Part shown: positions 15,668 through 35,478 of the stretch, in pieces
Layout of the letters: the number at the start of each line of letters is the position of its first letter
Position numbering within the stretch: position 1 is the first letter of the stretch
DNA from: Burkholderiales bacterium
Lineage (GTDB): Bacteria; Pseudomonadota; Gammaproteobacteria; Burkholderiales; JAEUOS01
Direction of reading: 5' to 3'
DNA: 64,000 nt
NCBI GenBank assembly: GCA_016790695.1
Contig: JAEUOS010000001.1
Span: 822-64,821, forward strand
Position numbers and translations under genes: made by a program
Notes under the pieces: generated by a model
What the model saw: the letters and a program-made list of their open reading frames with translations, nothing else
Told to the model about the DNA's origin: nothing
Databases searched by the model: none

Positions 15668-15702
15668 GAACTTCCTTCCATTGCCGCCGCGGCGACGCCC
15701 GC

Positions 15703-16431: not shown

Positions 16432-16462
16432 CGCTTTTCCCTTCGTCGCGCCCCTCGGCCGG

Positions 16463-19851: not shown

Positions 19852-20411
19852 GCCGCGCCCTTGGCGTAGGGATCGACGCCGGCGGCGCGGTCGGCATCGA
19901 TCACTTCCTGCGGCACGAACAGGCCGCGGTTCGGATCCTCGACGTTGTCGTAGATCACCATCACCATGCCGGCCTCGCCGGGCTCGCCCTGCTGCTCGAC
20001 GCGGCGCCACAGCATCGGCGGCACCGAGAAGGTGTCGAACGGGCCGAGCTCGACGAACTCCTCGGGGTCCTTGTTGAAGAAGATGCGGTAACGCCCCTTG
20101 ATCGGCATGAAGATCTCGCGGTACTCGTGGGCGTGGATCACCGGCGAGTTGCCGGCCTTCGACTCGATGAAGCACATGTGGAAGCTGTGCGGGGTGGAGA
20201 TGCCGGCCGGCGCGGCCTTGTTGCCGGTCGAGATCACGTACTTGATCGGCAGGCGCCTGGTCGGGTCGCCCTTGTCGACGAAGGCGTTCGGGTCGACCTT
20301 CAGGTCGCGGTAGAAGGCGACGTTCTTCATCACCTCGGCGGTCGGCATCTCGACGCCGGGGCCGGCGACGCGGGTGTACAGCGTGGTGCCTTCGGCGGTG
20401 GTCTGGCTCAT
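19848..20411 (-). CDS. Cupin-domain protein
   Basis: 187 aa. His-rich beta-barrel core (PHSFHMCFIE...VIHAHEYREIFMPIKG) fits the cupin metal motifs. Confidence 0.72.
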   Translation of the reverse strand: MSQTTAEGTTLYTRVAGPGVEMPTAEVMKNVAFYRDLKVDPNAFVDKGDPTRRLPIKYVISTGNKAAPAGISTPHSFHMCFIESKAGNSPVIHAHEYREIFMPIKGRYRIFFNKDPEEFVELGPFDTFSVPPMLWRRVEQQGEPGEAGMVMVIYDNVEDPNRGLFVPQEVIDADRAAGVDPYAKGAA

Positions 20412-20423
20412 GGCATGCTCCTT

Positions 20424-21188: not shown

Positions 21189-21289
21189 GCTGTTTCCCGA
21201 TGTCCGGTTGATGGGTCGGACGATTGTAGGAACCACCCCGCGGTGACGCTATCTGCGTCTCGACATAGTTAATATCTCCTTGGTGGATA

Positions 21290-22213: not shown

Positions 22214-22224
22214 GGCGCCGCGGC

Positions 22225-22977
22225 CTAGGGCATGATCTCGCCGCCGTTCGGGTGCAGCAGCTGGCCGCAGTAGTAGCGCCCCTCGTCGGAGGCCAGGAAC
22301 ACGAAGGCCGAGGTCATGTCCTCGGGGGTGCCGAGGCGCTTGAGCGGCAGGCTCGCGGCGTGCGCGGCCTTGACCGCCTCGGGCAGCGGGTCGAAGCCGG
22401 TGTCGACCAGGCCGGGCGCGACGCCGTTGACGAGCACGCCGTGGGGCGCCAGCTCCTTGGCCAGCGCGCGCGTGAAGGCGATCACCCCGCCCTTGGCGGT
22501 CGAGTACGCGGTGTAGTTCTCGCGCCCGATGTAGCCCAGCTGCGAGCACAGGTTGATGATGCGCCCGGACTTCGCCGCCATCATGTGGCGCGCGGCGGCG
22601 CGCGAGCACAGGAAGGCGCCGCGCAGGTGCACGGCCATCATGCGGTCCCAGTCGGCGACGCTCATCTCGACGATCGGCTGCGGGCGCTGGATGCCGGCGT
22701 TGTTGACGAGGATGTCGAGCCGGCCGAAGCGGGCGACCACCTCGGCGAAGGCCGACTCGACCTCGGATTCCTGGGTGACGTCGGCGCGCAGCGCCTGCGC
22801 GTGGCGGCCGCGTGCCTCGATCTCGCGCACCAGCGTCGCCGCCTCCTCCTCGCGGGCGACGAACAGCACCGCGACGTCCGCACCTTCGTCGGCGTAGGCC
22901 AGCGCCACCGCGCGGCCGATGCCGGTGTTGCCGCCGGTGATCACGGCGACACGCCCGGCGAGTCGTTGCATGCTCAT
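22225..22977 (-). CDS. SDR-family oxidoreductase
   Basis: MSMQRLAGRVAVITGGNTGIGRA (TGxxxGxG), NNAG, YxxxK (YSTAKGG). ATGA-type overlap with the upstream gene. Confidence 0.9.
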   Translation of the reverse strand: MSMQRLAGRVAVITGGNTGIGRAVALAYADEGADVAVLFVAREEEAATLVREIEARGRHAQALRADVTQESEVESAFAEVVARFGRLDILVNNAGIQRPQPIVEMSVADWDRMMAVHLRGAFLCSRAAARHMMAAKSGRIINLCSQLGYIGRENYTAYSTAKGGVIAFTRALAKELAPHGVLVNGVAPGLVDTGFDPLPEAVKAAHAASLPLKRLGTPEDMTSAFVFLASDEGRYYCGQLLHPNGGEIMP

Positions 22978-23717
22978 TGGACCTCCTGGAACAGCCGCCC
23001 CCAGCCGCGCACGCGGCGGGTGTCGACGCCGGCGAGCTTCAGGCACTTCCACACCGCCGTGGCGATGCTGTCGTAGATCGGGATGCCGGTCTCGGCCTCG
23101 AGCGCCTCGACCAGGGGCGCGGCCTTGAGATTCGTGCACAGCGGGATGATCGCCTGCGGACGCGCGCGCGCGACCGCGCGCACCATGCCGGCGATCGCCT
23201 CCGGCGTCACCTCGGAGAACGAGAAATTGTGCGACAGGCCGAGGTGCTGCTCGGCCACCACCCGAAAGCCCGCCTGCGCGTAGTTGGCGTCGATGCGCGC
23301 CTGCACGTCGTCGGTGTAGGGGGTGACGAAGGCGATGTCGCGCGCCCCGGTGAGGCGCAGGATCTCGTTGATCGCCAGCACCGACGTGCCGGCCGGGATG
23401 CCGGTCGTCGCGGTCAGCTCGCGGCACAGCGTCTCGTCGGTGCCGAAGCCGAGCCAGGACGAGGAGGTGCCGTTCCAGGCGATCGCATGCAGCTCCGCGT
23501 CGGCCAGCAGGTCGGCCGCCGCGAGGATGTTGGCGCGGTCGAACTGGCCGAGCGCGGCGTCGGACAGCGCGATCGTGCGCACGCGAAAGCGCCCGAAGTG
23601 CGCGGTCACCTCCGGCAGGCCGGCGAGCATCATCGTCGTGATCGGCTCGAGCGCCGTGTTCGATGACGGCGTCAGCATGCCGATCAGGGTGCGTCGCGGC
23701 ATCGTCGTGGATTCCAT
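22974..23717 (-). CDS. Maleate isomerase / arylmalonate decarboxylase-like protein (Asp/Glu racemase superfamily)
   Basis: 247 aa. LIGMLTPSSNTALEP N-terminal motif and a second-half CTNL motif fit the two-Cys maleate isomerase/AMDase family. Confidence 0.78.
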   Translation of the reverse strand: MESTTMPRRTLIGMLTPSSNTALEPITTMMLAGLPEVTAHFGRFRVRTIALSDAALGQFDRANILAAADLLADAELHAIAWNGTSSSWLGFGTDETLCRELTATTGIPAGTSVLAINEILRLTGARDIAFVTPYTDDVQARIDANYAQAGFRVVAEQHLGLSHNFSFSEVTPEAIAGMVRAVARARPQAIIPLCTNLKAAPLVEALEAETGIPIYDSIATAVWKCLKLAGVDTRRVRGWGRLFQEVQ

Positions 23718-23744
23718 GAATGGGCTGCGGGCGGCCGGCGGCGC

Positions 23745-24440
23745 TCAGCCGGCGAGCGCCTCGGCCAGGTCGAAGGCGGCCTCGGGAGGCGGCGCCATGT
23801 CGAGCCCCTCCTCGACCTCGTTGAGATGGGCGAGCATCAGGCGCGCGGCGCGCGCGCCGTCGCCGCGCGCGATCGCGGCCGCGATCTCGACATGGTCGTC
23901 GCCGCGGCAGGCGGGCGTGTTGGGACTCTCGTAGAGGTAGATGACGAGGCTGGTCAGGGTCTCGAGTTCGCGCAGCATGCGCAGCATCAGCTGGTTGCCG
24001 GCCAGCTCGGCGAGCAGCAGGTGGAACTCGCCGGTCAGCCGGATCAGCGCACGATGGTCGTCGCGCGCCGCCGCCTCGGCCTCGCGCTTCAGGTGCGCCT
24101 CGAGGCGGCGCTCGACCGCGCGGTCGGTGCGCGCCGCCAGCGTCTGCACGATCGCCGGCTCGAGCAGCCGGCGCAATTCGAACACCTCGCGCGCCTGCTC
24201 GGCGGTCGGCTCGCTGATCGCCGCGCCGCGGTTGGGATGCAGGGTGACGATGCCCTCGTGCGCGAGCCGCGCCAGCACCGGCCGCACGCGCGCGCGATTG
24301 ACGCCGAACACCTGCGCCAGGCGGTCCTCGACCAGGCGGGTCCCCGGCGGCAGCCGGTGCTCGACCACCGCGGCCATGATGCGCTCGACCATCTGTTCCT
24401 GGGTCGGCGGGCGGTTGGCGTGGGTGGTCTTGGCAGGCAT
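23745..24440 (-). CDS. GntR-family (FCD/FadR-subfamily) transcriptional regulator
   Basis: wHTH LPPGTRLVEDRLAQVFGVNRARVRPVLARLAHEGIV plus an all-helical C-terminal FCD-like domain. Start chosen at MPAKTT. Confidence 0.85.
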   Translation of the reverse strand: MPAKTTHANRPPTQEQMVERIMAAVVEHRLPPGTRLVEDRLAQVFGVNRARVRPVLARLAHEGIVTLHPNRGAAISEPTAEQAREVFELRRLLEPAIVQTLAARTDRAVERRLEAHLKREAEAAARDDHRALIRLTGEFHLLLAELAGNQLMLRMLRELETLTSLVIYLYESPNTPACRGDDHVEIAAAIARGDGARAARLMLAHLNEVEEGLDMAPPPEAAFDLAEALAG

Positions 24441-24530
24441 GGCGTCGCCGCATTCTAATCGCGCCCCCGGCAGGGCACGCACCGAACCGGGTCATCGATG
24501 CACCCGAATGGTGTACAAACAATTTGACGT

Positions 24531-24564
24531 ATTGTTGACAAAATGCGTGATGTTAGTCAACAAT
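24531..24564. promoter_or_regulatory. Candidate GntR operator: perfect 9-bp inverted repeat
   Basis: ATTGTTGAC (24531-24539) and GTCAACAAT (24556-24564), 16 bp apart, in the AT-rich divergent GntR/racemase spacer. A third TTGAC lies at 24524-24528. Confidence 0.4.
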
Positions 24565-24620
24565 CTTTCGGTCCCGGAGCCGCGCCGCATCACGGCGCGC
24601 TGCCGGAGGAAGGGGGGGCG

Positions 24621-25355
24621 ATGAAGCTGCTGCTGGTCAACGGCAACCGCACACGGGCGGTGACGGCCGCCGTGCTGGCCGAGGCGCAGGCGACGGCCGC
24701 GGACGGCACCGAGCTGGTCGCCGTCGAGGCGGCGTTCGGCGCCGACATCGTGTTCTCCCACGCCGAGAACGCGGTCGCCACCCACGCGGTGCTCGACGCG
24801 CTCGCGCGCCACGCCGGCGGCTGCGACGCGGCGATCCTCGCGATCTCGTTCGATTCCGGCCTTGCCGCGGCGCGCGAGCTGCTGCCGATGCCGGTGCTGG
24901 GCATCACCGAAGCCGCGCTCCTGACCGCGTGCCAGCTCGCCCGCCGCGTCGGCGTCGTCACGGTCGGCCGCGTCTCGAGCAGCCTGTATGCCGAGGTGTT
25001 CGCGCAGACCGGCCTCGGCGACCGGATCGCGGCGGTCGGCACGGTCGACATGGCGTCGGCCGGCGAGTACCTGTCGCCGCAGGATTTCGACGCGCGCGTC
25101 GTCGCCGAGGCCAATCGCCTCGCCGCCGAGGCCGGCGCCGAAGCCGTCGTCGCCTGCGGCGCGGCCCTCGCGGGCATCGCGCGGCGCGCGCGCGCGGCGG
25201 TCGCGGTGCCGCTGGTCGACGGTGTCGGCGCCGCGGTGCGCCAGGCCGAGGCGCTGGTGCGCGGCGGCTATCGCGCGCGCGCGCGGCCCGCGGGCCCGCG
25301 CGCCACCATGGCCGGGGTGTCGGCCGAACTCGCCGCGCTGTTCGCGCGCCCCTAG
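24621..25355 (+). CDS. Hydantoin/allantoin racemase-family protein (Asp/Glu/hydantoin racemase superfamily)
   Basis: MKLLLVNGN... start with GGAGGAAGGGG RBS. 244 aa, with conserved AAILAISFDSG and VVACGAAL segments as in HyuE/HpxA-type racemases. Confidence 0.78.
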   Translation: MKLLLVNGNRTRAVTAAVLAEAQATAADGTELVAVEAAFGADIVFSHAENAVATHAVLDALARHAGGCDAAILAISFDSGLAAARELLPMPVLGITEAALLTACQLARRVGVVTVGRVSSSLYAEVFAQTGLGDRIAAVGTVDMASAGEYLSPQDFDARVVAEANRLAAEAGAEAVVACGAALAGIARRARAAVAVPLVDGVGAAVRQAEALVRGGYRARARPAGPRATMAGVSAELAALFARP

Positions 25356-25363
25356 CTGCGGCC

Positions 25364-26875
25364 ATGGCGCGCATCCTGATCCGGCGCGCCCGCGTGCTCA
25401 CGCTCGATGGCGACGACCGCGAGCTCGACCGCGCCGACATCCTGGTCGACGGCGCGCGCATCGCCGCGATCGGCGCGCAGCTCGACGCCGCCGGCGTCGA
25501 CCGGGTGATCGAGGCCGACGGCAAGCTCGCGATGCCCGGCCTCGTCAACGGCCACTTCCATTCCCCGGGCAACATGATGTGCGGCGCGCTCACCGACATG
25601 CCGCTCGAGCTGTTCATGCTCTACGAGGTGCCGCCCGGCGGCGAGGGCGCGATGGGCCATCGCCTCGCCTACGTGCAGACCCTGCTCGGCGCGGTGGAGA
25701 TGCTCAAGGCGGGCATCACCGCGGTGCACGACGACCCGTACCACAATCCGGCGCCGACCACCGACGGCATCGACGCGATCATGCAGGCGTACGCGGATGC
25801 CGGCATCCGCGCGACGGTCTCGATCAACCATCCGAACAGGATCGAGTACGAGAAGTACCCGTTCCTCGCCGACCTGCTGCCGGACGCGGTCAAGGCGCGC
25901 ATGGCCGCGGTGCGGCGCTGGCCGGCCGCCGAGATCGGCGCGCTGTACCGCTGGTTCCTCGAGCGCTGGCACGGCCAGGCCGACGGTCGCCTGCGCATCG
26001 CGGTGTCGAACTCGGCGCCGCAGCGGGTCACCGACGACTACTTCGCGACCCTGTCGGAGTTCAGCCGCGCGCACGACCTGCCGTTCGACATCCACATGCT
26101 CGAGACGCGCCTGCAGCGGGTGTTCGGCCAGGAGGTGTGGGGCAAGTCCCTGGTGCGCCAGGTCCACGACCTCGGATTCCTCGACCGGCGCATGCTGGTC
26201 ATCCATGCGATCTGGGTCGACGAGGCCGACATGGAGCTGCTGGCCGCCGCCGGCTGCACGGTCGCGCACAACCCGGTGTGCAACCTCAAGCTGGGCAGCG
26301 GGGTGATGCCGTTCCGGCGGCTTTCCAGACATGGCATACCGATTGCATTGGGCACCGATGAACGCAACACCGACGACACCACCAACGTCTGGGGCGCCAT
26401 GAAGACCGCCGGCCTGATCCACAAGATTGCCGAGCCCGACTACCGCGACTGGCCGAGCGCCGCGGAGGTCCTCGCCTGCGCCACGCGCGGCGGCGCGCGC
26501 GGCATGGGCCTCGAGGGCCGGATCGGCGTCCTCGCGCCCGGCGCGCAGGCCGACCTGATCCTGGTCGACCTCGACACCCTGCCGTTCACGCCCCTGAACG
26601 ACCTGCGGCGCCAGCTGGTGTTCTGCGAGAACGGCGCGTCGGTGCGCCTGACCATGGTCGCCGGGCGCGTCGTGGTGGAGGACGGCCGCGTCCTCAGCGT
26701 CGACGAGCCCGCGCTCAGGGCCGAGGTGCGCGCGCTCGCCGCCGAGTTCCGCGACAGCCTCGCCGCCACCGACCGCGCCGCCGCCGCGCTCGAACCCTTC
26801 TACCGCGCGATGCTCATGCGCGCGCTCGACGTGCCGGTCGGCATGGAGCGCCGCGCCGGGCCGATGACGCCGTGA
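25364..26875 (+). CDS. Metal-dependent amidohydrolase (ATZ/TRZ, guanine/cytosine-deaminase-like)
   Basis: 503 aa. N-terminal beta-sandwich, then PGLVNGHFHSP (HxH metal ligands) and a late GTDE motif. 4-nt overlap with the next gene. Confidence 0.85.
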   Translation: MARILIRRARVLTLDGDDRELDRADILVDGARIAAIGAQLDAAGVDRVIEADGKLAMPGLVNGHFHSPGNMMCGALTDMPLELFMLYEVPPGGEGAMGHRLAYVQTLLGAVEMLKAGITAVHDDPYHNPAPTTDGIDAIMQAYADAGIRATVSINHPNRIEYEKYPFLADLLPDAVKARMAAVRRWPAAEIGALYRWFLERWHGQADGRLRIAVSNSAPQRVTDDYFATLSEFSRAHDLPFDIHMLETRLQRVFGQEVWGKSLVRQVHDLGFLDRRMLVIHAIWVDEADMELLAAAGCTVAHNPVCNLKLGSGVMPFRRLSRHGIPIALGTDERNTDDTTNVWGAMKTAGLIHKIAEPDYRDWPSAAEVLACATRGGARGMGLEGRIGVLAPGAQADLILVDLDTLPFTPLNDLRRQLVFCENGASVRLTMVAGRVVVEDGRVLSVDEPALRAEVRALAAEFRDSLAATDRAAAALEPFYRAMLMRALDVPVGMERRAGPMTP

Positions 26876-27798
26876 TCCCGCCCGCCATGCTCGCCACCCA
26901 CGGCCGGTTCGCCTACTCCGCCATCACCGAGCGGCCGCGCTTCGCCTGGCCGGAAGGCAGGCGCCTGGCCGTCTACGTCGCGCTGAACCTCGAGGCCTAT
27001 GCCTTCGGCGAAGGCCTGATCGAGGAGATCGCCGCGCCCGGACCGGGCCCGGCGCCGGACGTGATGAACTGGTCGTGGCTCGAGTACGGCAATCGCGTCG
27101 GCGGCTGGCGCCTGCAGCGCCTGTTCGCCGAGCTGCGCCTGCCGTGCACGCTGCTGGTCAACGCCGCGGTCTATCGCCACTGCCCGCAGTTGCCGGCCGC
27201 CTTCGCCGCCGCCGGCGCCGAGATCGCCGCGCACGGACGCACCAATTCGGAGCGCCAGGGCAACCTGCCCGAGCCCGCCGAGGCCGCGCTGATCGCCGAG
27301 GCGACCGCCGCCATCGCGGCCGGCGCCGGGACGCGGCCGCGCGGCTGGCTCGGCCCCTGGATCTCCGAAAGCCGCGTCACGCCGGACCTGCTGCACGAAG
27401 CCGGCTACCGCTACGTGCTCGACTGGTGCTGCGACGACCAGCCGTTCTGGCTCGCCACCCGCGGCGGGCGGCTCCTGGCCGTGCCGTACCCGCAGGAGCT
27501 CAACGACAGCAATACCGTGATCGGCCGGCGCGTCAATCCCGACGATTTCGCCGACATGATCGTCGACAACTTCGCCGAGATGCGCCGCCAGGCCGAGGAC
27601 GCGCCGCTGGTGATGGGCGTCTCGCTCCATGCGCACTGCGCCGGCCAGCCGTTTCGCCTCGTGCATTTCCGGCGCGCGCTGGCGGCGCTGGCGCAGGCGC
27701 TGCCCGACGTCTGGGTCACGACCGCCGGCGCCATCGCCGACCACTTCATAGCCACCACGACCGGCACGACCGAGGCCGCGGGAGACAAAGCGCGGTGA
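26872..27798 (+). CDS. Polysaccharide-deacetylase-fold hydrolase, PuuE-allantoinase-like
   Basis: 308 aa, collinear with the PuuE family (EYGNRVGGWRL, EIAAHG, PRGWLGPW, DDQPFW, VPYPQELND, SLHAHCAGQPFR). Substrate not assignable. Confidence 0.82.
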   Translation: MIPPAMLATHGRFAYSAITERPRFAWPEGRRLAVYVALNLEAYAFGEGLIEEIAAPGPGPAPDVMNWSWLEYGNRVGGWRLQRLFAELRLPCTLLVNAAVYRHCPQLPAAFAAAGAEIAAHGRTNSERQGNLPEPAEAALIAEATAAIAAGAGTRPRGWLGPWISESRVTPDLLHEAGYRYVLDWCCDDQPFWLATRGGRLLAVPYPQELNDSNTVIGRRVNPDDFADMIVDNFAEMRRQAEDAPLVMGVSLHAHCAGQPFRLVHFRRALAALAQALPDVWVTTAGAIADHFIATTTGTTEAAGDKAR

Positions 27799-27833
27799 GG
27801 CGCGTTCCTCACGATCACGACATGGAGAACCGC

Positions 27834-28292
27834 ATGCATCCGATCGATCCGCAGCGACGGGACGTCCTCGCCGCCGGCACGCTGGCCGCCGGCGCCCTGC
27901 TGGCCGCCGCCTCCGGCGCGCAGGCCCAGCCGGCCCTGCCGCCCAAGCTTTCCACCCACGCGCTCGACACCTACAACGGCAAGCAGGCCGCCGGCATCCG
28001 CATCGACCTGTACCAGATCGAGGGCGACAGCCGGCGGCTCATCAAGACCGTGCGCGCCAACGAGGAAGGGCGGGTCACCGCCAACCTGCTCGAGGGCGAC
28101 GCACTCAAGGTGGCGCGCTACGAACTGGTGTTCCACGTCGCCGAGTACTACAAGGCGATGGGCGTGGCCCAGTCGAATCCGGAGTTCCTCGACGTGGTGC
28201 CGCTGCGGGTGGCGATCTGGGACGCGCGGCAGCGCTACCACGTGCCGCTGTACTTCTCGCCATGGGGCTACATGACCTACCGCGGCAGCTGA
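27834..28292 (+). CDS. hiuH: Transthyretin-like 5-hydroxyisourate hydrolase with twin-arginine-type signal peptide
   Basis: Signal MHPIDPQRRDVLAAGTLAAGALLAAASGAQA. HALD...GKQAAG N-terminal motif, HVPL, and the diagnostic C-terminal YRGS tetrapeptide. GGAGAA RBS. An alternative ATG lies at 27822. Confidence 0.8.
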   Translation: MHPIDPQRRDVLAAGTLAAGALLAAASGAQAQPALPPKLSTHALDTYNGKQAAGIRIDLYQIEGDSRRLIKTVRANEEGRVTANLLEGDALKVARYELVFHVAEYYKAMGVAQSNPEFLDVVPLRVAIWDARQRYHVPLYFSPWGYMTYRGS

Positions 28293-28344
28293 GCCGCCCG
28301 CGCCCGCCCTGCCCCCACGACCCACGCTTTCCGGAGAATTCACC

Positions 28345-28803
28345 ATGGACCAGACCGACACCCGGCGCCGCGACTTCATCGCCGCCGCCATCGCCGCCGG
28401 CGGCACGCTTGCCGCCTCGAAGGACGCCGCCGCCCAGGCCCCGGCCGGCGGCCGCGTCACCGCCCACATCCTCGACCTCTACTTCGGCACCCCCGCGAGC
28501 GGGCTCCGGCTCGACTTCTATGCCGTCGGCAGCGCCGGCCAGACCCTGATCAAGTCGACCGTGACCAACGCCGACGGGCGCCCGCCCGAGGGGCCGCTGG
28601 TGCAGCCGGCCGACATGAAGGCCGGGCGCTACCGCATCGACGTGCACGTCGGCGACTACTACAAGAAGGCCGGCGCCAAACTGCCGGGCGGCTACCACAC
28701 GCGCCTGTCGATGGAGTTCGACATCTACGACCCGAAGCAGCCGCACCACCTGCCGTTCCAGATCACGCCCTGGACGCAGTCGTCGTCGGTGCTGCCCGGC
28801 TGA
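28345..28803 (+). CDS. Divergent transthyretin-like protein with twin-arginine signal peptide (lacks the C-terminal YRGS)
   Basis: TRRRDFIAAAIAAGGTLA Tat motif. HILD...GTPASG and HHLPF are conserved, but the C-terminus is ...SSSVLPG instead of YRGS. Confidence 0.75.
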   Translation: MDQTDTRRRDFIAAAIAAGGTLAASKDAAAQAPAGGRVTAHILDLYFGTPASGLRLDFYAVGSAGQTLIKSTVTNADGRPPEGPLVQPADMKAGRYRIDVHVGDYYKKAGAKLPGGYHTRLSMEFDIYDPKQPHHLPFQITPWTQSSSVLPG

Positions 28804-28837
28804 CCCCACCCCACCCTCGCGATCGAAAGGATCCACC

Positions 28838-29836
28838 ATGCCCTCCCCCCTCAAGGCCCTCGCCGCCGGCCTCGCCGCGGCACTCGCCTTCGCCCACGCC
28901 GGCGCGCAGGCGCAGGACAAGATCCGGCTCGCCGGCAACTTCGAGACCGCGCATTCGTCCAGCGTCGCCATGGAACAGGTGTTCAAGGCCGAGCTGGCCA
29001 AGCTGACCAGGAACCAGTTGCAGGTCGACATCTTCCCCGCCATGCAGCTCGGCGGCGCCAAGGAGAACGTCGACGCCGTGCGCGCCGGCTCGCTGCTCAT
29101 GACCTGGGTCGGCGCGGCCTACCTGTCGCGCATCATCCCCGAGCTCGAGGCGGTCAGCCTGCCCTTCCTGTTCCCGAGCCGCGAGGCGGCGTTCCGCGTC
29201 ATGGACGGCAACGTCGGCAAGCTGATCGACCAGAAGATGGCCGACAAGAACTTCACCGTGCTCGGCTGGATGGAGCTGGGTTCGCGCAACATCACCAACA
29301 ACAAGAAGCCGATCCGCAGCATCGAGGACCTGAAGGGCCTGAAGATCCGCCTGCAGCCCAACGAGACCCATCTCGCGACCTTCCGCGCGCTCGGCGCCAA
29401 CGCGGTGGCGATGGACGTCAAGGAGCTGTACTCGGCGCTCGAGCAGAAGGTGCTCGACGGCCAGGAGAACCCGTTTCCGATCATCCGCGCCGCGCGCTAC
29501 ATGGAGGTGCAGAAGTACCTCTCCAACAGCGGGCACTTCTTCGACTTCATCGTCATCGTCGCCAACAAGAAGTCCTTCGAGGGCCTGAAGCCCGACTACC
29601 AGAAGGCGATCCGCGAGGCGATGGCGGCGACCGTCGCCGCGCAGCGCGCGAGCGCCGCGAAGGCCGACGCCGACGCGCTCGAGGAGCTCAAGAAGCGCAT
29701 GGAGTACACCGAGCTCTCGCCGCAGGTGCGCGAGGCGATGCGCAAGGCCACGGCCGGCGTGATCGACGACGTGAAGAAGCGCGCCGGCGCGGCGCTGGTC
29801 GACAGCGTGCTCGCCGAGGTGGCGAAGTCGCGCTAG
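28838..29836 (+). CDS. dctP: TRAP transporter substrate-binding protein (DctP family), system 1
   Basis: 332 aa. Signal peptide, DctP-family length and motifs (GGAKENVDAVRAGSL, LKGLKIR). Confidence 0.88.
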   Translation: MPSPLKALAAGLAAALAFAHAGAQAQDKIRLAGNFETAHSSSVAMEQVFKAELAKLTRNQLQVDIFPAMQLGGAKENVDAVRAGSLLMTWVGAAYLSRIIPELEAVSLPFLFPSREAAFRVMDGNVGKLIDQKMADKNFTVLGWMELGSRNITNNKKPIRSIEDLKGLKIRLQPNETHLATFRALGANAVAMDVKELYSALEQKVLDGQENPFPIIRAARYMEVQKYLSNSGHFFDFIVIVANKKSFEGLKPDYQKAIREAMAATVAAQRASAAKADADALEELKKRMEYTELSPQVREAMRKATAGVIDDVKKRAGAALVDSVLAEVAKSR

Positions 29837-29855
29837 ACGCGCCCAGGCACGGGAG

Positions 29856-30347
29856 ATGGCGATGTTCAAGTCGATGCTCGACGGGTTCGACCGGCTGGTC
29901 TGCTGGACCATCATGCTGGCGATGGCCCTGATGGTGGCCGTGGTGTCGGCGCAGGTGCTGCTGCGCTACGGCTTCAATTCCTCGTTCGACTGGGCCGACG
30001 ACGTCGGCCGCCTGCTGTTCGTCGCCTCGGTGTTCCTCGCCATCCCGATCGGCGTCAAGCACAGCGCGCACATCAGCATCGAGCTGCTGGTGGCGCGCCT
30101 GCCCGCGTCCGTGCGCGGCGGGCTGGCGCGCCTCGTCGCCCTGCTCTCGGCGGCGATGATGGCGCTGATCTGCTGGTACGGCGTGCGCGTCGCGGCCGAG
30201 CAGTGGACCGAGATGCTGCCGACGGTCGAGCTGACCGTCGCCAGCTTCCTGATCCCGGTGATCGTCGGCGCCGCGCACAGCGCGATCCATCTCGCGCGCA
30301 TCGTCGTGGCCGGTCCGCCCGCGAGCGCGGGCCTGGCCGCCGAATGA
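29856..30347 (+). CDS. dctQ: TRAP transporter small permease (DctQ family), system 1
   Basis: 163 aa, four hydrophobic segments. Lies between the DctP and DctM genes. Confidence 0.85.
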   Translation: MAMFKSMLDGFDRLVCWTIMLAMALMVAVVSAQVLLRYGFNSSFDWADDVGRLLFVASVFLAIPIGVKHSAHISIELLVARLPASVRGGLARLVALLSAAMMALICWYGVRVAAEQWTEMLPTVELTVASFLIPVIVGAAHSAIHLARIVVAGPPASAGLAAE

Positions 30348-30357
30348 GGAGACCGCG

Positions 30358-31644
30358 ATGAGCCTCGGCATCTTCCTCGGCTTCCTGCTGCTCGGGGTGA
30401 TCGGCATGCCGATCGCCTTCTCGCTGGGCTTTGCGGCCATGGTCGCGCTCGCGTTCTCGGACGTCGGGCTCGCGATCATCCCGCAGCGCATGATGCACGC
30501 GGTCAATTCGTTCCCCCTGATGTCGATCCCGTTCTTCATCCTGGCCGGCGAGCTGATGGTCAAGGCCGGCATCGTCGAGCGCCTGATCGAGCTCGCCAAC
30601 GCGGTGGTCGGGCGGGTGCGCGGCGGCCTCGCGCACGTGACCATGCTCTCCGGCGCCGGCCTGGCCACGGTCTCGGGCGCGGCGGTTTCCGACGCCAGCG
30701 CGCTGTCGACCATCCTCGGCCCGTCGCTCACGCGCGCCTACGACAAGCCGTTCGCCTCGGCGATCATCGCCGCGGCCGGCAACCTGGGCCCGATCATCCC
30801 GCCTTCGGGCGCGATGATCGTCTACGCGTTCATGGCCGGGCCCTCGGTCTCGGTCGGCGGCATGTTCATGGCCGGCGTCGTGCCCGGCATCCTGATCACC
30901 ACCGGCTTCATGCTGCTGTGCACCTGGTACGTCGGGCGCCGCGGCTACCCCGCGACCGGCGACGCGTTCAGCTTCCGCAACGTGTTCGTGCAATTGCGCC
31001 GCTCGTTCATCATCTTCATGATGCCGGTGGTGGTGATCGGCGGCATCGTCGGCGGCGCCTTCACCGCGACCGAAGGCTCGGCGATCGCGGTGGTCTACGC
31101 GCTCGTCATCGGGTTCGCCGTCACCCGCCGCCTCAGGCTGGCGGACCTGCCCGAGATCCTGCTGCGTTCGGCGATCACCACCGCGATGGTCGGCGCGCTG
31201 ATCGCCTTCGCCTCGGTCGTCACCTACATCCTCACCGTCGACCTGCTGCCGCAGCAGCTCGCGACGCTGGTCAAGTCGATCACCTCGAGCCCGCTCGGCT
31301 ACATGGCGCTGGTGGCGGTGCTGCTGTTCGTGGTCGGCATGTTCCTCGAGTCGAATGCGGCCTACATCATGCTGGTGCCGCTGCTGCACCCGATCGCGCT
31401 GCAGTACGGCATCGACCCGCTGCACTTCGGCTTCCTGTTCGTGCTCAACCTGGTGATCGGCATGCTCACCCCGCCGGTCGGCGTGGTGCTGTTCGTGGTG
31501 TGCGGGATCAACAAGATCTCGATGCGCGAGATCGTGGTCGCGCTGTGGCCGTTCATCACCCTGATGTACGGCGTGCTCGTGCTGTGCATGCTGTTCCCGC
31601 CGGTGGTCACCTGGCTGCCGCGCCTGCTCGGGTACGGCGCATGA
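30358..31644 (+). CDS. dctM: TRAP transporter large permease (DctM family), system 1
   Basis: 428-aa polytopic membrane protein with DctM-type sequence (SIPFFILAGELM). Confidence 0.9.
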   Translation: MSLGIFLGFLLLGVIGMPIAFSLGFAAMVALAFSDVGLAIIPQRMMHAVNSFPLMSIPFFILAGELMVKAGIVERLIELANAVVGRVRGGLAHVTMLSGAGLATVSGAAVSDASALSTILGPSLTRAYDKPFASAIIAAAGNLGPIIPPSGAMIVYAFMAGPSVSVGGMFMAGVVPGILITTGFMLLCTWYVGRRGYPATGDAFSFRNVFVQLRRSFIIFMMPVVVIGGIVGGAFTATEGSAIAVVYALVIGFAVTRRLRLADLPEILLRSAITTAMVGALIAFASVVTYILTVDLLPQQLATLVKSITSSPLGYMALVAVLLFVVGMFLESNAAYIMLVPLLHPIALQYGIDPLHFGFLFVLNLVIGMLTPPVGVVLFVVCGINKISMREIVVALWPFITLMYGVLVLCMLFPPVVTWLPRLLGYGA

Positions 31645-31714
31645 TTCGTCCGTCGGGCACCCCCGTCGCCGGCGCGGCTCGCGCCCTGTCGGCCCGCGGC
31701 GAGGCGGGGCACGC

Positions 31715-32443
31715 ATGAGCGCCGACGCCCTGCGCCTGGGGATGATCCTGCCGTCGTCGAACACCGTCGTCGAGCCGGTCGCCTGCGAGATGGTCGCCGC
31801 GCTGGCCCCGACGCTGCCGGCGAGCGTGCACTTCTCGCGCTTCGCGCTCACCGCGGTGCAGGTGGCCGACCCGGCCGCCGCCTACTACGACTCGGGCGCC
31901 CTGCTGGGCGCCGCACGCCTGCTCGCCGACGCGCGCTGCCACGCGATCTGCTGGAACGGCAGCGCCGGCGGCCTGGTCGGCTTCGCGCGCGACCGCCGCC
32001 TGTGCGACGAGATCCGCGCGGCGACCGGCAGCGCCGCCACCACCTCCAGCCTCGCCATCCTCGATGCCCTGCGCGCGGCGCGCGCGCGCACCTTCGGGCT
32101 GGTGACGCTCAACCCGCCGGCGATGAACCGCACCATCCTGGCGAGCTTCGCGGCCGAGGGCTTCACCGGCATCGCCTCGACCGACCGCGACGACATCGCC
32201 GACAACTTCGCGATGGCCGCGGTCGGCGCCGCGGAGATCGCCGCCGCCGTGCGCCGCTGCGCGCGCGACCGTCCCGACGCGGTCGTCATCTACGGCACCA
32301 ACACGCGCGGCGCCGCGCTCGCCGGCCCGCTCTCGCGCGAGCTCGGGCTGCCGGTGCTCGATTCGGTCGCGATGGGCGTGATCGGCGCGGTGCGCGTGGC
32401 CGGGCGCGACGCGGCGGCCCTCGCCCGCTGGCTGCCGCCGTAG
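31715..32443 (+). CDS. Maleate isomerase / arylmalonate decarboxylase-like protein (Asp/Glu racemase superfamily), second copy
   Basis: 242 aa. LGMILPSSNTVVEP N-terminal motif parallels the 22974..23717 product. Confidence 0.75.
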   Translation: MSADALRLGMILPSSNTVVEPVACEMVAALAPTLPASVHFSRFALTAVQVADPAAAYYDSGALLGAARLLADARCHAICWNGSAGGLVGFARDRRLCDEIRAATGSAATTSSLAILDALRAARARTFGLVTLNPPAMNRTILASFAAEGFTGIASTDRDDIADNFAMAAVGAAEIAAAVRRCARDRPDAVVIYGTNTRGAALAGPLSRELGLPVLDSVAMGVIGAVRVAGRDAAALARWLPP

Positions 32444-32520
32444 ACCGGCACCGCGCATGTTCTAATGACCGATTCCGAACGCCTTCCGCCTTCCGCCAAC
32501 CCGCCCCCAGGAGCCATGCC

Positions 32521-33561
32521 ATGCGATTGATGCCACTCGTACTCACCGCCGCCGCGCTCGCCGCCGCGCTGCCGGCAGCCGCGCAGGAGAAGATCAAGCT
32601 GCGCGTCATGGGCATGCCGCTCTCGACCGGCATGATCCACAAGAACAAGGAACAGCCGTTCTTCGAGACCCTGGCCGCGAAGACGGGCCTGCCGCTCGAC
32701 GTCGACTACAAGCCGCTCGATTCCACCGGCGTCAAGGAGTTCGAGCAGCTGCGGGTGATGAAGACCGGCATCTACGACATCGTCGGGCTGCGCATGGGCC
32801 AGGTCTCACGCGACGAGCCGACCATCCTCGGCCTCGATCTCGTCGGCCTGAACACCGACTACAAGACCGCGAAGAAGGTCGTCGGCGCCTACCAGAGCTT
32901 CGTCGACCTGCGCCTGCAGGAGCAGTTCAACCTGAAGCTGCTCGGGGTCTGGCCGTTCGGCCCGCAGGTGATCTTCTGCAAGCCCCCGATCAAGGACCTC
33001 GCGAGCCTCAAGGGAATGAAGGTGCGCATCCTCGACGGCGTGATGGCCAAGTTCATGGAGCGCGTCGGCGCCACCCCGGTGACGATGGCCTTCGGCGAGG
33101 TCGCGCAGGGCCTGAAGCTCGGCACCATCGACTGCGCCGTCACCGGCCCGTCGTCGGCCAATTCGGCCGGCTGGCCCGAAACCGCCACCCACATGTACGT
33201 GCTCGGCCTGCAGGTGGCGGTGCAGGGCTACGCGATCAACATGAACTCCTGGAAGAAGATGTCGTCCGACCAGCAGATCAAGCTGCGCGGCGCCATCGAG
33301 GGGCTCACCGACGACATCTGGAAGTACTCGGAGGAGCTGTGGAGCGACGGCGTGCGCTGCAACACCGGCCAGGAGCCCTGCACCACCGGCAAGAAGTTCA
33401 AGATGACCCTGGTCAAGCCCACCCCGAAGGACGTCGCCTTCGTGCAGAACGCGGTGAAGGACATCTCGCTGCCGGCCTGGGCCGAGGCCTGCGACAAGGT
33501 CAATCCGAACTGCTCGGCGAACTGGAAGAAGACCGTCGGCCCGATCATCGGCATCAAGTGA
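32521..33561 (+). CDS. TRAP transporter substrate-binding protein, system 2
   Basis: Signal MRLMPLVLTAAALAAALPAAAQ. 346 aa, immediately upstream of DctQ/DctM-type genes. Cys-rich C-terminal third (four Cys). Confidence 0.82.
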   Translation: MRLMPLVLTAAALAAALPAAAQEKIKLRVMGMPLSTGMIHKNKEQPFFETLAAKTGLPLDVDYKPLDSTGVKEFEQLRVMKTGIYDIVGLRMGQVSRDEPTILGLDLVGLNTDYKTAKKVVGAYQSFVDLRLQEQFNLKLLGVWPFGPQVIFCKPPIKDLASLKGMKVRILDGVMAKFMERVGATPVTMAFGEVAQGLKLGTIDCAVTGPSSANSAGWPETATHMYVLGLQVAVQGYAINMNSWKKMSSDQQIKLRGAIEGLTDDIWKYSEELWSDGVRCNTGQEPCTTGKKFKMTLVKPTPKDVAFVQNAVKDISLPAWAEACDKVNPNCSANWKKTVGPIIGIK

Positions 33562-33607
33562 CACCGCGCCCGGGCGGCGCCGCGCCGCCCGGGCGTCAGG
33601 AGACCGC

Positions 33608-34186
33608 ATGAAACGTCTCGAGCAGGTCGCCGCCACGCTGTTCGGCGCGGTGTTCCTCATCCTCTCCTTCGCCGTCGCGCTGGAAACCTTCATGCGCAAG
33701 GTGTTCAACGTCTCGCTGCAGGGCGTCGACGAGCTCGGCGGCTACATCCTGGCCGTCGGCGCGTCGCTCGCATTCACCCTGGCGCTGATCTCGCGCGCGC
33801 ACATCCGCATCGACCTCGTGCACGACCGTCTCGCGCGCGCGCCGCGCCTGGCGCTGAACGTGATCGCGGTCCTGTTCATCACCGCCACCGCCGCGTTCAT
33901 GCTGGCGATGGCCTACTACAGCCTGCGCGACTCGATCGCCCTCAACAGCACCGCGCAGACGCCGTGGGCGACGCCGATCAAGTACCCGCAGATGGTGTGG
34001 ATCGCCTGCCTCGGCCTGTTCGCGGCGGTCTCCGCGGGCTACGGCCTGCGCGTCCTGCTGCTGGCGGCGAGCGGCCGCAGCGCGGAGATCGAGGCGCGCT
34101 ATTCCCCCAAGGGCGCGAAGGAGGAACTGCAGGAAGAGCTCGATGACGTGCGCGCGCGCGGCGCGGCCGGCGGGAGCGCGCCATGA
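33608..34186 (+). CDS. TRAP transporter small permease, system 2
   Basis: 192 aa, four hydrophobic segments. AGGAG RBS. 4-nt overlap with the large permease gene. Confidence 0.85.
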   Translation: MKRLEQVAATLFGAVFLILSFAVALETFMRKVFNVSLQGVDELGGYILAVGASLAFTLALISRAHIRIDLVHDRLARAPRLALNVIAVLFITATAAFMLAMAYYSLRDSIALNSTAQTPWATPIKYPQMVWIACLGLFAAVSAGYGLRVLLLAASGRSAEIEARYSPKGAKEELQEELDDVRARGAAGGSAP

Positions 34187-35478
34187 GCATGGTCGCGGTG
34201 GGCATGACCAGCTTCGTGGTCATGGTCGGGCTGATGCTCCTCGGCATGCCGATCGCCGCGGTGATGATGCTGCTCGCGGTGGCGGGCGGCATGGCCGCCT
34301 TCGGCGAGGCGTTCCTGATCTCCGCGGCCTCGGTGCTGTGGGGCACGATGAGCGAGAACGGCCTGACCGCGATCCCGCTGTTCGTCCTCCTGGGCGAGCT
34401 GCTGCTGCGCAGCGGCATGGCGGACCGCATGTACCAGGCCTTCGCGGCCTGGCTCGGCCGCCTGCCCGGCGGCCTGCTGCACACCAACATCGGCTGCTGC
34501 GCGCTGTTCGCCGCCACCTCGGGATCGTCGGTCGCCACCGCGGCGACCATCGGCACGGTGGCGCTGCCCTCGCTGCAGCGCCACGGCTACCCGATGAAGG
34601 AGGCGCTCGGCAGCCTGGCCGCGGGCGGCACGCTGGGAATCCTGATCCCGCCGTCGGTGAACATGATCATCTACGGCTCGATGACCAACAATTCGGTCGG
34701 CAAGCTGTTCATCGCCGGCATCCTGCCGGGGCTGCTCCTCACGGGCCTGTTCATGCTCTGGATCTTCATCATGGCCAAGGCCACCGGCATGGCGGTCAGG
34801 CACGAGCCGGTGCCGCTCGGCGAGCGCTTCCGCGTCCTGGGCGGGGTGATCCAGCCGCTGATCATCTTCGCCATCGTCATGGGCAGCCTGTACTTCGGCA
34901 TCGCCACGGCGACCGAGTCCGCGGCCATCGGCGTCGTGGTGGCGGTGGTGTTCATCGCCTTCTCCGGCCGGCTCACGCCCGCGCTGCTGCAGGGCTGCTT
35001 CCTGTCGTCCGCACGCACCACCGGCATGATCCTGCTCATCACGACCGCGGCCTTCGTGCTCAACCTCGCGCTCAGCCTGACGGGCATCGGCGAGGCGCTC
35101 ACCAAGTGGGTCACCGGCTTCGGCCTGTCCAAGACCGCGCTGCTGCTCGCGCTGATCCTGTTCTACCTGCTGCTGGGCATGTTCATGGACACGCTGTCGA
35201 TGATGGTGGCGACGATTCCGCTGACCTACCCGATCGTCACCGCCGTCGGCGTGGACCCGATCTGGTTCGGCATCTTCATCGTCATCATGTGCGAACTCGG
35301 CCTCATCACCCCGCCGGTGGGCATGAACCTGTTCGTGGTCCAGGGCATCCGGCCCGACCGCGGCAGCGTCGGCGACGTGATCCGCGGCGCGTTGCCCTAC
35401 GCGGTGATCATGATCCTGTTCACCTTCATCCTGATGGCGTTCCCCGGGATCGTCACGTTCCTGCCGGAGAACATGTAG
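34183..35478 (+). CDS. TRAP transporter large permease, system 2
   Basis: 431-aa polytopic protein, DctM-type (AIPLFVLLGELLL). Confidence 0.9.
   Translation: MSMVAVGMTSFVVMVGLMLLGMPIAAVMMLLAVAGGMAAFGEAFLISAASVLWGTMSENGLTAIPLFVLLGELLLRSGMADRMYQAFAAWLGRLPGGLLHTNIGCCALFAATSGSSVATAATIGTVALPSLQRHGYPMKEALGSLAAGGTLGILIPPSVNMIIYGSMTNNSVGKLFIAGILPGLLLTGLFMLWIFIMAKATGMAVRHEPVPLGERFRVLGGVIQPLIIFAIVMGSLYFGIATATESAAIGVVVAVVFIAFSGRLTPALLQGCFLSSARTTGMILLITTAAFVLNLALSLTGIGEALTKWVTGFGLSKTALLLALILFYLLLGMFMDTLSMMVATIPLTYPIVTAVGVDPIWFGIFIVIMCELGLITPPVGMNLFVVQGIRPDRGSVGDVIRGALPYAVIMILFTFILMAFPGIVTFLPENM

Follow-up and report, generated by a model that had tools for sequence, protein, structure and literature searches.

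A co-conserved gene island of Burkholderiales with PuuE-like, racemase-like and TRAP transporter genes and a predicted role in cyclic-amide or ureide catabolism

Background

Breakdown of the purine ring and of ureides is a major nitrogen-recycling route in soil and water, and ureide breakdown has repeatedly yielded previously unrecognised enzymes, including PuuE, 5-hydroxyisourate (HIU) hydrolase, OHCU (2-oxo-4-hydroxy-4-carboxy-5-ureidoimidazoline) decarboxylase and AllFGH. Canonical uricolysis comprises urate oxidase, HIU hydrolase, OHCU decarboxylase and the allantoinase PuuE or AllB, and both OHCU and HIU are short-lived. Klebsiella pneumoniae and Klebsiella oxytoca possess an hpxS-hpxA-hpxB allantoin module with an adjacent hpxC permease gene and guaD; the hpx allantoin genes of Klebsiella are reportedly the subject of Guzman et al. 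2011, J Bacteriol 193:2197. The hyu clusters combine a hydantoin racemase, a hydantoinase and a carbamoylase. HpxS is named as a GntR-type regulator in PMC4609117. In this study, we analyzed a 13-kb block of 15 genes at positions 22225-35478 of a 64,000-nt stretch of DNA from a Burkholderiales bacterium (assembly GCA_016790695.1, contig JAEUOS010000001.1, positions 822 to 64,821 of the forward strand; the whole stretch is hereafter called the window), in which genes for a GntR-family regulator, a racemase-family protein, a TRZ/ATZ-type amidohydrolase, a PuuE-like hydrolase (PDA) and two transporters of the TRAP (tripartite ATP-independent periplasmic) type lie together. An earlier note, made from the sequence, had drawn attention to this block.

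Relatives of the individual proteins have also been described. PuuE carries a Glu-His-Trp triad in place of the Asp-His-His metal site, together with the catalytic His259 (Ramazzina 2008, summarised in PMC11424739). Deacetylase-fold enzymes that open hydantoin or imide rings include PuuE and BpIH, PuuE-type enzymes also hydrolysing glutarimides (PMC11424739), and DdaH, which mediates the transformation of a hydantoin intermediate (PMC12927932). Genes of arylmalonate decarboxylase (AMDase), the natural substrate of which is not known, are often flanked by TRAP or tripartite tricarboxylate transporter (TTT) genes, and a Gly74/Cys188 pattern defines decarboxylative protonation in this enzyme (PMC4996985). 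In TRAP binding proteins for organic acids, Arg152, Arg173 and Asn213 (4P47 numbering) bind the carboxylate (PMC11668362). The HIU-hydrolase homologue of Salmonella (TLP) has been described as periplasmic (PMC3528726) and HiuH (YedX) of Escherichia coli is treated as periplasmic in a review (PMC5270733); the title of a 2026 paper calls YedX a cytoplasmic protein (PMC12925577).

Results

The block is one real, co-conserved gene island and no chance juxtaposition. Fourteen diverse PDA homologues were aligned, and 80 genomic loci around relatives (numbered with the prefix L) were searched by tblastn with all window proteins, counts of the full gene set being limited to the 53 loci of at least 16 kb. 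The racemase-family gene was found in 36 of the 80 loci, the GntR gene in 34, a gene of the AMDase/maleate-isomerase-like type (MI) in 30, the amidohydrolase gene in 29 and a DctP1-type TRAP system in 28. The set of GntR regulator, racemase-family protein, PDA, TRZ/ATZ amidohydrolase and AMDase-like protein was complete in 19 of the 53 long loci, 16 of which additionally hold two TRAP systems. It occurs in at least five gene orders, in Betaproteobacteria and in one metagenome-assembled genome (MAG) of Hyphomicrobiales. The commonest order is TRAP2-Amido-MI-TRAP1 divergent from GntR-racemase-PDA; the regulator, the racemase-family gene and the hydrolase usually follow each other on one strand, and in most loci the GntR gene immediately precedes the racemase-PDA pair. 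The window's clade differs in having the amidohydrolase gene between racemase and PDA and the regulator inverted and divergent from them. The arrangement is far beyond chance, because the same set recurs rearranged in many genomes. The loci closest to the window are Burkholderiales MAGs (up to 86% identity), and cultured carriers of the island include Hydrogenophaga luteola KCTC 42501, Variovorax robiniae KACC 18901, Uliginosibacterium (U. sediminicola or U. silvisoli) and Viridibacterium curvum JCM 18715.

The earlier note had taken the genes as one unit and had named two outcomes that would speak against it. The first, a lack of co-conservation, was contradicted by the neighbourhood comparison, in which the genes stayed together through all these orders. 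The second was an orthologous cluster with a defined substrate; the literature search returned no description of the gene set, no substrate for any orthologue and no characterised orthologous cluster.

Genes in the window, which is about 72% G+C with many spurious open reading frames (ORFs), were for that reason called by G+C at third codon positions (GC3) and start-codon choice, and families were assigned with Pfam and NCBIfam profiles. The calls agree with the coordinates that the earlier note had given for the 15 genes, and the profile assignment of each protein for which it had called confirmed every family label. The features are as follows.

22225-22977, minus strand: short-chain dehydrogenase/reductase (SDR) oxidoreductase (PF00106/PF13561, E about 1e-62)
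22974-23717, minus strand: MI1, AMDase/maleate-isomerase-like protein (PF17645 Amdase, 90 bits), its gene sharing 4 nt with the SDR gene
23745-24440, minus strand: GntR-family regulator with an FCD effector domain (PF00392 and PF07729)
24531-24564, no strand: divergent promoter region with an inverted repeat, candidate GntR operator
24621-25355, plus strand: Asp/Glu/hydantoin-racemase-family protein (PF01177, 116 bits)
25364-26875, plus strand: TRZ/ATZ (cog0402)-type metal amidohydrolase (PF01979, 157 bits)
26872-27798, plus strand: PDA, PuuE-like deacetylase-fold hydrolase (TIGR03212, 122 bits; PF01522, 21 bits, under the cut-off), with an alternative ATG start at 26887
27822-28292, plus strand: TTR1, transthyretin-like protein (TIGR02962, 108 bits; PF00576 positions 1-109 of 109)
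28345-28803, plus strand: TTR2, transthyretin-like protein (TIGR02962, 67 bits; PF00576 positions 1-104 of 109)
28838-31644, plus strand: TRAP transporter 1, DctPQM-1 (PF03480, PF04290, PF06808)
28838-29836, plus strand: DctP1
29856-30347, plus strand: DctQ1
30358-31644, plus strand: DctM1
31715-32443, plus strand: MI2, AMDase/maleate-isomerase-like protein (PF17645, 46 bits)
32521-35478, plus strand: TRAP transporter 2, DctPQM-2 (PF03480, 82 bits; PF04290, PF06808)
32521-33561, plus strand: DctP2
33608-34186, plus strand: DctQ2
34183-35478, plus strand: DctM2

Intergenic gaps on the plus strand range from -4 to 77 nt. A 765-aa minus-strand ORF (22225-24522) covers the SDR, MI1 and GntR genes, mostly in another frame; it is an artefact of the high G+C, and ORF length alone misleads in this window.

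The transthyretin pair was found in about 10 of the 80 loci, MI1-type genes in a minority, and SDR orthologues of 79-81% identity only in L002, L004, L005 and L007. The pair, the SDR and MI1 are lineage-specific accessories outside the conserved core, a correction to the earlier note. All-against-all clustering of the ORFs of the core loci gave no further conserved family, the extra clusters resembling antisense shadows. An exact-sequence look-up returned no match for PDA (with either start) and, for TTR2, one 1.6-kb Logan contig only. In some core loci PDA is followed directly by a second paralogue of the hydantoin racemase (L055, 10994-11734; L062, about 4.1 kb); that of L055 reads 'AAFGDPG' at the first site and has Cys at neither catalytic site.

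Only two sigma-70-like sites were detected in positions 21800-36200 (14.4 kb), and they stand back-to-back in the GntR/racemase intergenic region. A 12-nt inverted repeat (ATTGTTGACAAA / TTAGTCAACAAT) with TTGT-N2-ACAA palindromes overlaps both promoter-like sites, and its motif occurs twice in the window, both times at 24531-24564, against 0.14 expected. A matching palindrome precedes the GntR gene in L002, L004-L008, L012, L016, L018, L021 and L024, which include close relatives as well as several distant loci. The repeat is thus a candidate GntR operator, and the island is probably controlled by its GntR/FCD regulator.

No protein of the island reached membership of a characterised enzyme family, except for TTR1 (HIU hydrolase) and for generic clan and transporter assignments. 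PDA, with PuuE (3cl6, 1z7a) and 3s6o as its relatives in the PDB, scored 122.1 bits against the PuuE equivalog cut-off of 424.6 (TIGR03212). In a profile alignment to PuuE structures it keeps Glu36, His116 and His248 (the counterpart of PuuE His259). PuuE Trp131 is replaced by Asn120, which does not vary among 14 members of the family, so the triad reads Glu-His-Asn and not that of PuuE. On the grounds of the sub-cut-off score and the Trp-to-Asn change, PDA is ranked by its sequence as a sister family of PuuE and not as PuuE itself.

The neighbours of PDA homologues were surveyed across the loci. In L021 and L040, OHCU decarboxylase genes adjoin the core together with three transthyretin-like genes, and further neighbours there are a class-V aminotransferase, an IclR regulator and a thiamine-pyrophosphate (TPP) enzyme. 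In loci of the Afipia type, PDA homologues have as neighbours two oxamate carbamoyltransferase subunits (AllG and AllH), a CoA-ligase protein like FdrA and a gene of the amino-acid-kinase family, the last a probable carbamate kinase. On a Polaromonas plasmid and a Sulfitobacter plasmid the PDA homologue and a racemase-family gene are direct neighbours or stand one gene apart, in islands with ureidoglycolate lyase, an AtzD-type ring-opening amidohydrolase, dihydropyrimidinase, N-carbamoyl-amino-acid hydrolase and hydantoinase A/B. Other PDA loci add a creatininase-family protein, an AtzD-type enzyme and dihydropyrimidinase, all judged on N-terminal sequence alone. A second PDA paralogue stands beside PDA in L030 and likewise on the Sulfitobacter plasmid, and such co-occurrence of two paralogues suggests different substrates. 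Taken together, the PDA family is predicted to act on cyclic ureides, hydantoins or imides, with a bias to purine-derived ureides.

The L040 locus also holds a 592-aa ORF (15620-17398) composed of an N-terminal OHCU decarboxylase domain and an M20 peptidase domain, which is a true fusion or else reflects a frameshift in the assembled MAG, and a second M20 ORF of ArgE/DapE type overlaps it. Allantoate amidohydrolase was considered for these M20 genes and rejected, NCBIfam placing the one tested in the ArgE/DapE group.

Among solved structures, the racemase-like protein is closest to two allantoin racemases, 5lfd at 87 bits and 3qvj at 80 bits. Racemases of the HpxA/AllR type carry a two-Cys acid-base dyad (Cys79/Cys184 in K. 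pneumoniae HpxA) or, in the AllR variant, Gly/Cys. At the site of Cys79 of K. pneumoniae HpxA it carries Ser, as do all its orthologues, and the second Cys (HpxA Cys184 site) is found only in the window's clade and L024 and is gone in most core orthologues. The Ser is no proof of inactivity, since 5lfd, deposited as a Pseudomonas allantoin racemase, has Gly at that site and the OpaE C90S mutant retains 4.8% activity (PMC12661438); racemase activity is therefore possible, judged from these residues, and not assured.

The translated amidohydrolase shows the motifs NGHFH, HMLE, VIHAIW and GTDE, the HxH...HxxE...H...D signature of cog0402 deaminases, and has AtzA, methylthioadenosine/S-adenosylhomocysteine (MTA/SAH) deaminases and 8-oxoguanine deaminase as relatives in the PDB. 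Tested against the cog0402 deaminases of known substrate (guanine, 8-oxoguanine, MTA/SAH, formiminoglutamate and the atrazine family), it belongs to the clan and to no NCBIfam equivalog, with scores against cut-offs of 252/609, 240/522, 209/532 (8-oxoguanine deaminase), 99.5/375.4 (guanine deaminase) and 85/413 bits.

The MI proteins form three subfamilies, MI1, MI2 and the core type, with 36-40% mutual identity. The two catalytic residues of maleate isomerase are Cys76, the nucleophile, and Cys194 (Nocardia farcinica numbering). All 35 MI-like sequences have Gly at the first of these sites and MI2 has Gly at the second as well, so that the MI proteins cannot be maleate isomerases or two-base racemases, and maleate isomerase function was rejected. 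The earlier note had called MI1 and MI2 maleate-isomerase/AMDase-like and had counted three racemase-superfamily members in favour of stereo-inversion or decarboxylation steps; without the two-Cys dyad in the MI proteins, stereo-inversion falls for MI1 and MI2 and survives at most for the hydantoin-racemase-like gene, the first site of which is itself occupied by Ser.

MI1 and the core type keep the second Cys and so show a Gly/Cys single-thiol pattern. Aligned to the AMDase of Bordetella bronchiseptica (3dg9; also 3ip8), MI1 keeps Gly-Thr-Ser at 74-76, Tyr126 and Cys188 and lacks Gly189 and Gly190; its second-site motif includes LCTN. We take the dioxyanion hole of AMDase to comprise Thr75, Ser76, Tyr126 and Gly189 and its aryl pocket Pro14, Pro15, Gly189 and Gly190. 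Thus the Gly74/Cys188 pattern and, in MI1, the Thr75-Ser76 and Tyr126 positions of the dioxyanion hole are shared with AMDase. In contrast, the aryl-pocket positions of MI1 are replaced (TPSS, CTN), Pro14-Pro15 and Gly189-Gly190 giving way to PSSNT and CTN motifs that resemble those of maleate isomerase, and the arylmalonate decarboxylase cut-off of 225 bits (NF052327) was missed by MI1 (80.8), MI2 (44.1) and the core-type MI of L043 (41.7). The TRAP neighbourhood is a further likeness to AMDase genes (PMC4996985). By their residues, MI1 and the core type share the catalytic pattern of AMDase and stand outside its family. MI2 has neither catalytic Cys ('WNGSAGG ... YGTNTR'). It is nevertheless intact, in five loci at 54-69% mutual identity (window; L002, L005, L006, L008 and L009 named), and it follows DctM1, the place of the Cys-bearing core-type MI in other loci; possibly it is a pseudo-enzyme or works by another mechanism. 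The identity matrix, with subfamilies equally 36-40% alike, does not tell an origin of MI2 from the core type from one from MI1.

TTR1 scored 107.8 bits against the HIU-hydrolase cut-off of 87.45 (TIGR02962) and ends in TYRGS, and it qualifies as an HIU hydrolase. TTR2 reached 67.1 bits, ends in SSVLPG with no YRGS and does not qualify, and this ending is kept in L002, L004, L005, L006 and L008. The N-termini of the pair carry twin-arginine motifs (QRRDVL in TTR1; TRRRDFI) followed by Ala-rich h-regions, and both proteins are predicted to be exported by the twin-arginine translocation (Tat) pathway. The earlier note had treated exported HIU-hydrolase-like proteins as an oddity; the leaders are there on both, but export is not unusual in this family (PMC3528726; PMC5270733). 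Salmonella TLP and E. coli HiuH (YedX) have likewise been described as HIU-hydrolase-family proteins outside the cytoplasm. Unlike in those cases, two paralogues with twin-arginine motifs, one of them without YRGS, are found here, inside an operon and directly upstream of a TRAP binding-protein gene. Pairs of transthyretin-like genes joined the operon in two lineages, at a different position in each.

Other transthyretin-like genes were seen along the way. In L009 only a short C-terminal remnant of TTR2 (...HHLPFQITPWTQSTSVLPG) lies between PDA and DctP1 (10982-11083), which suggests recent loss of the pair in that relative. Paired genes in other Betaproteobacteria (L027, 3637-4555; L029, 3710-4576; L021, 16225-17033) encode one cytoplasmic protein of 117 aa and one of 160-171 aa with a twin-arginine leader. 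The transthyretin-like proteins of Uliginosibacterium and Viridibacterium end in YRGQ and YRWKE, not YRGS.

In DctP1, Arg150, Arg171 and Asn211 correspond to the carboxylate-binding Arg152, Arg173 and Asn213 of 4P47, so the triad is complete; 4P47, its closest solved relative, is ligand-free and offers no clue to the ligand. DctP1 orthologues of 58-86% identity occur in 28 loci. DctP2 keeps the equivalent of Arg173, the salt-bridge residue, with Gln and Thr at the two supporting positions; the idea that it lacks a carboxylate-binding Arg was overturned by mapping onto 4P47 and 4n8y, in which only the supporting Arg and Asn are replaced. True DctP2 orthologues (53-89%) are confined to L002, L021, L055 and L057, the second TRAP of other loci being 35-42% identical. 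The nearest matches of DctP2 and of the commoner second type of binding protein, though weak, are Bordetella DctP6/7 and 4NN3, which binds orotate (PMC11668362).

Uricase, OHCU decarboxylase, allantoicase, allantoate amidohydrolase and ureidoglycolate enzymes were absent from the roughly 50 window proteins scanned, in agreement with the list of missing enzymes in the earlier note, and tblastn with two OHCU decarboxylases found no match in the window. The earlier note's view that the island does not match the canonical urate-to-allantoate pathway is upheld, since these enzymes are missing from the window and none is conserved with the core. The points of contact with canonical uricolysis are TTR1, the PuuE-like and allantoin-racemase-like genes, and the OHCU decarboxylase beside the core in L021 and L040. 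The differences are that the window encodes neither urate oxidase nor HpxO, no OHCU decarboxylase and no enzyme for allantoate or ureidoglycolate and thus does not hold the canonical cluster, and that both its HIU-hydrolase-like proteins are predicted to be exported by Tat.

What the earlier note overlooked in finding no canonical match is the closest layout, a GntR-racemase-PuuE-type module near a cog0402 deaminase gene, as in Klebsiella hpxSAB. Both systems have a GntR regulator, a racemase-family gene and a deacetylase-fold metal-independent hydrolase in the same order, associated with a cog0402 deaminase and an uptake system. HpxA (3qvj) matches the racemase-like protein with 80 bits; for HpxS and HpxB the likeness is one of gene order alone. 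Unlike in Klebsiella, the hydrolase is distant from PuuE in score and triad (Glu-His-Asn; 122 against 424.6 bits), Ser takes the Cys79 position of the racemase, the deaminase is no guanine deaminase (99.5 against 375.4 bits), TRAP systems that need an anionic ligand stand in place of an allantoin permease, and an AMDase-like protein is additionally conserved. With the hyu clusters the island has in common a racemase-family gene, a ring-opening cyclic amidohydrolase and a transporter, and PDA homologues lie inside such clusters on plasmids. In contrast to them, the ring would be opened by a deacetylase-fold enzyme and not by a dihydropyrimidinase-type or ATP-dependent hydantoinase, and no carbamoylase is conserved with the core, which has the TRZ/ATZ enzyme and the AMDase-like protein instead.

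The flanks of the island hold TctC receptors and aromatic or redox enzymes. Directly upstream (19848-22213) are a cupin-like protein (187 aa, no NCBIfam match), an alpha/beta hydrolase weakly like 3-oxoadipate enol-lactonase and a divergent LysR regulator, none of which is conserved with the core in other loci. After the island, on the minus strand (35453-37947), lie an MhpA-type FAD monooxygenase (496 bits, 3-(3-hydroxyphenyl)propionate hydroxylase subfamily), the 3' end of which overlaps the end of DctM2 convergently by 26 nt, and then an extradiol-dioxygenase-like gene; HpxO was rejected as the identity of the monooxygenase (53.6 bits against a cut-off of 500), and the pair is an aromatic-acid module unrelated to the island. 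Five TctC ('Bug') receptor genes were counted in the 64 kb (17113-18087, 37975-38979, 40740-41753, 44455-45423 and 57385-58353), multiple such genes being typical of Burkholderiales genomes. Further along the minus strand are a 1180-aa TPP/POR/DUF6537 protein (46730-50272), which we take to be an indolepyruvate-ferredoxin-oxidoreductase-like enzyme, beside an AsnC-family regulator, and a 782-aa molybdopterin oxidoreductase (50910-53258). A 957-aa ORF at 5609-8482 matches a FAD_binding_3 aromatic-ring hydroxylase only from residue 417, and probably either its true start is far downstream or its N-terminal part is a spurious high-GC extension.

Discussion

We consider the island to be one functional unit for the catabolism of a cyclic amide or ureide, with a probability of roughly 0.85. 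That its substrate is a purine-derived carboxylated cyclic ureide of the hydantoin or imidazolone type, other than plain allantoin, which is imported and degraded, is put forward tentatively, at somewhat less than even odds, and the specific OHCU-type route is improbable. The proposal of the earlier note, import and degradation of a ureide- or hydantoin-type heterocycle that it did not name, is the best available reading in this gene context. The cyclic-ureide reading is drawn from the repeated occurrence of PDA homologues among ureide and hydantoin genes (OHCU decarboxylase, AllG/AllH, ureidoglycolate lyase, dihydropyrimidinase). The likeness of PDA to PuuE and of the racemase-like protein to allantoin racemases, and the score of TTR1 over the HIU-hydrolase cut-off, would be consistent with a ureide, and the salt-bridge Arg kept in both TRAP binding proteins points to a carboxylate. 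The entry of TTR pairs at two positions, the AMDase-like Gly/Cys pattern of MI1 and the core type, and the precedent of deacetylase-fold enzymes acting on hydantoin or imide rings count in favour as well.

A working scheme can be proposed on this basis. In the periplasm, TTR1 and TTR2 would hydrolyse a bicyclic acyl-urea of the 5-hydroxyisourate type to an OHCU-type ring carboxylate, and in lineages without the pair a related carboxylate would be taken up directly. DctPQM would bring the carboxylate into the cell, where the AMDase-like protein may carry out a one-base step at the carboxylated carbon, most likely loss of CO2 with Cys-mediated stereoselective protonation, to give a 5-substituted hydantoin. 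The racemase-family protein would equilibrate the hydantoin enantiomers, PDA would open the hydantoin ring without a metal, and the TRZ/ATZ enzyme would split off ammonia from a group of the amidine, ureido or amino kind. Until its FCD domain binds a carboxylate of the pathway, the GntR protein is probably a repressor of both divergent promoters, acting by way of the TTGT-N2-ACAA palindromes. A more specific form of this scheme is distinctly improbable: the single-Cys AMDase-like proteins would be cofactor-free decarboxylases that turn an OHCU-type carboxylate into a defined hydantoin enantiomer, and with the Tat-exported HIU-hydrolase pair and the TRAP importer they would make up an 'outside-in' salvage of extracellularly oxidised urate, followed by an undescribed branch of PuuE paralogue and TRZ/ATZ enzyme.

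Several points weigh against the purine-ureide reading. The function rests on context, because the enzymes fall under the cut-offs of characterised families, and the role given to the TRZ/ATZ enzyme is conjectural. The core cannot depend on the TTR genes, since only about 10 of the 80 loci have them and OHCU and HIU do not last long; nor can the MI protein simply replace OHCU decarboxylase, because L021 has a canonical OHCU decarboxylase as well as a core MI. Some of the racemase-like and MI proteins may be non-catalytic, given that most core racemase orthologues and MI2 lack both Cys. Some 40 homologues of PDA, for the most part from Alphaproteobacteria, lack a racemase neighbour and lie in heterogeneous contexts. 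DctP1 has Ala where its relatives have an acidic residue that binds the ligand hydroxyl (PMC11668362), which speaks weakly against an alpha-hydroxy acid such as OHCU.

A doubtful alternative is that the substrate is a non-purine hydantoin, cyclic-imide or lactam carboxylate, such as hydantoin-5-acetate or -propionate, a dihydroorotate-like ureide or a substituted pyroglutamate. Racemisation of the ring and its opening to an N-carbamoyl or half-amide dicarboxylate would come first, with TRZ/ATZ and MI-like processing to follow, and the TTR genes would be later, functionally separate additions. This would account for the absence of TTR genes from most core loci, although TTR pairs joined the operon independently at two positions and canonical urate genes adjoin the core in L021 and L040. 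PDA homologues do occur in generic hydantoin clusters with dihydropyrimidinase, N-carbamoyl-D-amino-acid hydrolase and hydantoinase A/B, where a probable creatininase-family protein (N-terminal sequence alone) is also found, but no carbamoylase is conserved with the core, and the AllG/AllH and ureidoglycolate lyase contexts of other homologues are a pointer towards ureides from purines. The PSSNT and Tyr motifs of the MI proteins, carboxylate-binding in maleate isomerase, suggest a succinate-like moiety, and the second type of binding protein is nearest to DctP6/7 of Bordetella, which bind pyroglutamate, and to the orotate-binding 4NN3. The hydrolysis of glutarimides by PuuE-type enzymes (PMC11424739) and the hydantoin intermediate of DdaH (PMC12927932) agree with such a substrate as well.

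Use of plain allantoin is unlikely. In that case the GntR-racemase-PDA trio would be the functional equivalent of hpxS-hpxA-hpxB of Klebsiella, with PDA as a further type of allantoinase, the racemase-like protein as an allantoin racemase, the TRZ/ATZ enzyme as a purine-base deaminase that supplies the pathway like GuaD and the TTRs as ordinary HIU hydrolases, while the TRAP systems would take up allantoate or another ureide acid. The conserved transporters, however, are TRAP systems with a carboxylate-binding Arg, allantoin has no carboxylate, and there is no allantoin permease. The AMDase-like protein, conserved with the core, would have no role, and no enzyme degrading allantoate or ureidoglycolate is conserved with it. 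The gene order of hpxSAB beside a cog0402 deaminase and the best solved relatives, allantoin racemases and PuuE, do favour allantoin, as does the Pseudomonas allantoin racemase 5lfd, likewise without the first Cys; PDA itself is far from the PuuE cut-off with its triad Trp replaced by Asn, and the second PDA paralogue of L030 and the Sulfitobacter plasmid does not fit. Also in favour of allantoin, many PDA homologues are annotated as 'allantoinase' by JGI, and in L040 genes for OHCU decarboxylase and HIU hydrolase adjoin the trio and the amidohydrolase, with neither TRAP nor MI present.

It is very improbable that chance brought unrelated operons together in a gene-dense genome of high GC: TRAP and racemase-family genes are plentiful in Burkholderiales and the window flanks are a mosaic of unrelated catabolic genes, but the gene set is kept in at least five orders in 19 long loci from different genera, and the window genes are tightly packed around one divergent promoter region. 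A maleate, maleamate or nicotinate-type pathway, with the MI genes as maleate cis-trans isomerases producing fumarate, is hardly credible, for in spite of the Pfam and PDB similarity to the maleate isomerases 2xec and 4fq7 and the PSSNT and CTN motifs like those of such enzymes, all 35 MI-like sequences have Gly at the nucleophile position, MI2 also lacks the second Cys, and the genes conserved with the core include no ring-cleavage dioxygenase, deformylase or maleamate amidase.

Conclusions

The island is widespread in Burkholderiales, internally coherent and experimentally tractable in cultured hosts. It is built from diverged paralogues of known ureide enzymes, several of them with altered catalytic residues. 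If the substrate proved to be plain allantoin, the result would be a modest one, another non-orthologous allantoinase system. Defining the substrate would add a branch to ureide and hydantoin catabolism and would correct the widespread annotations 'allantoinase', 'maleate isomerase' and 'chlorohydrolase', and through the island the natural role of AMDase-like enzymes, a group employed in biocatalysis, could be studied in a physiological setting (PMC4996985).

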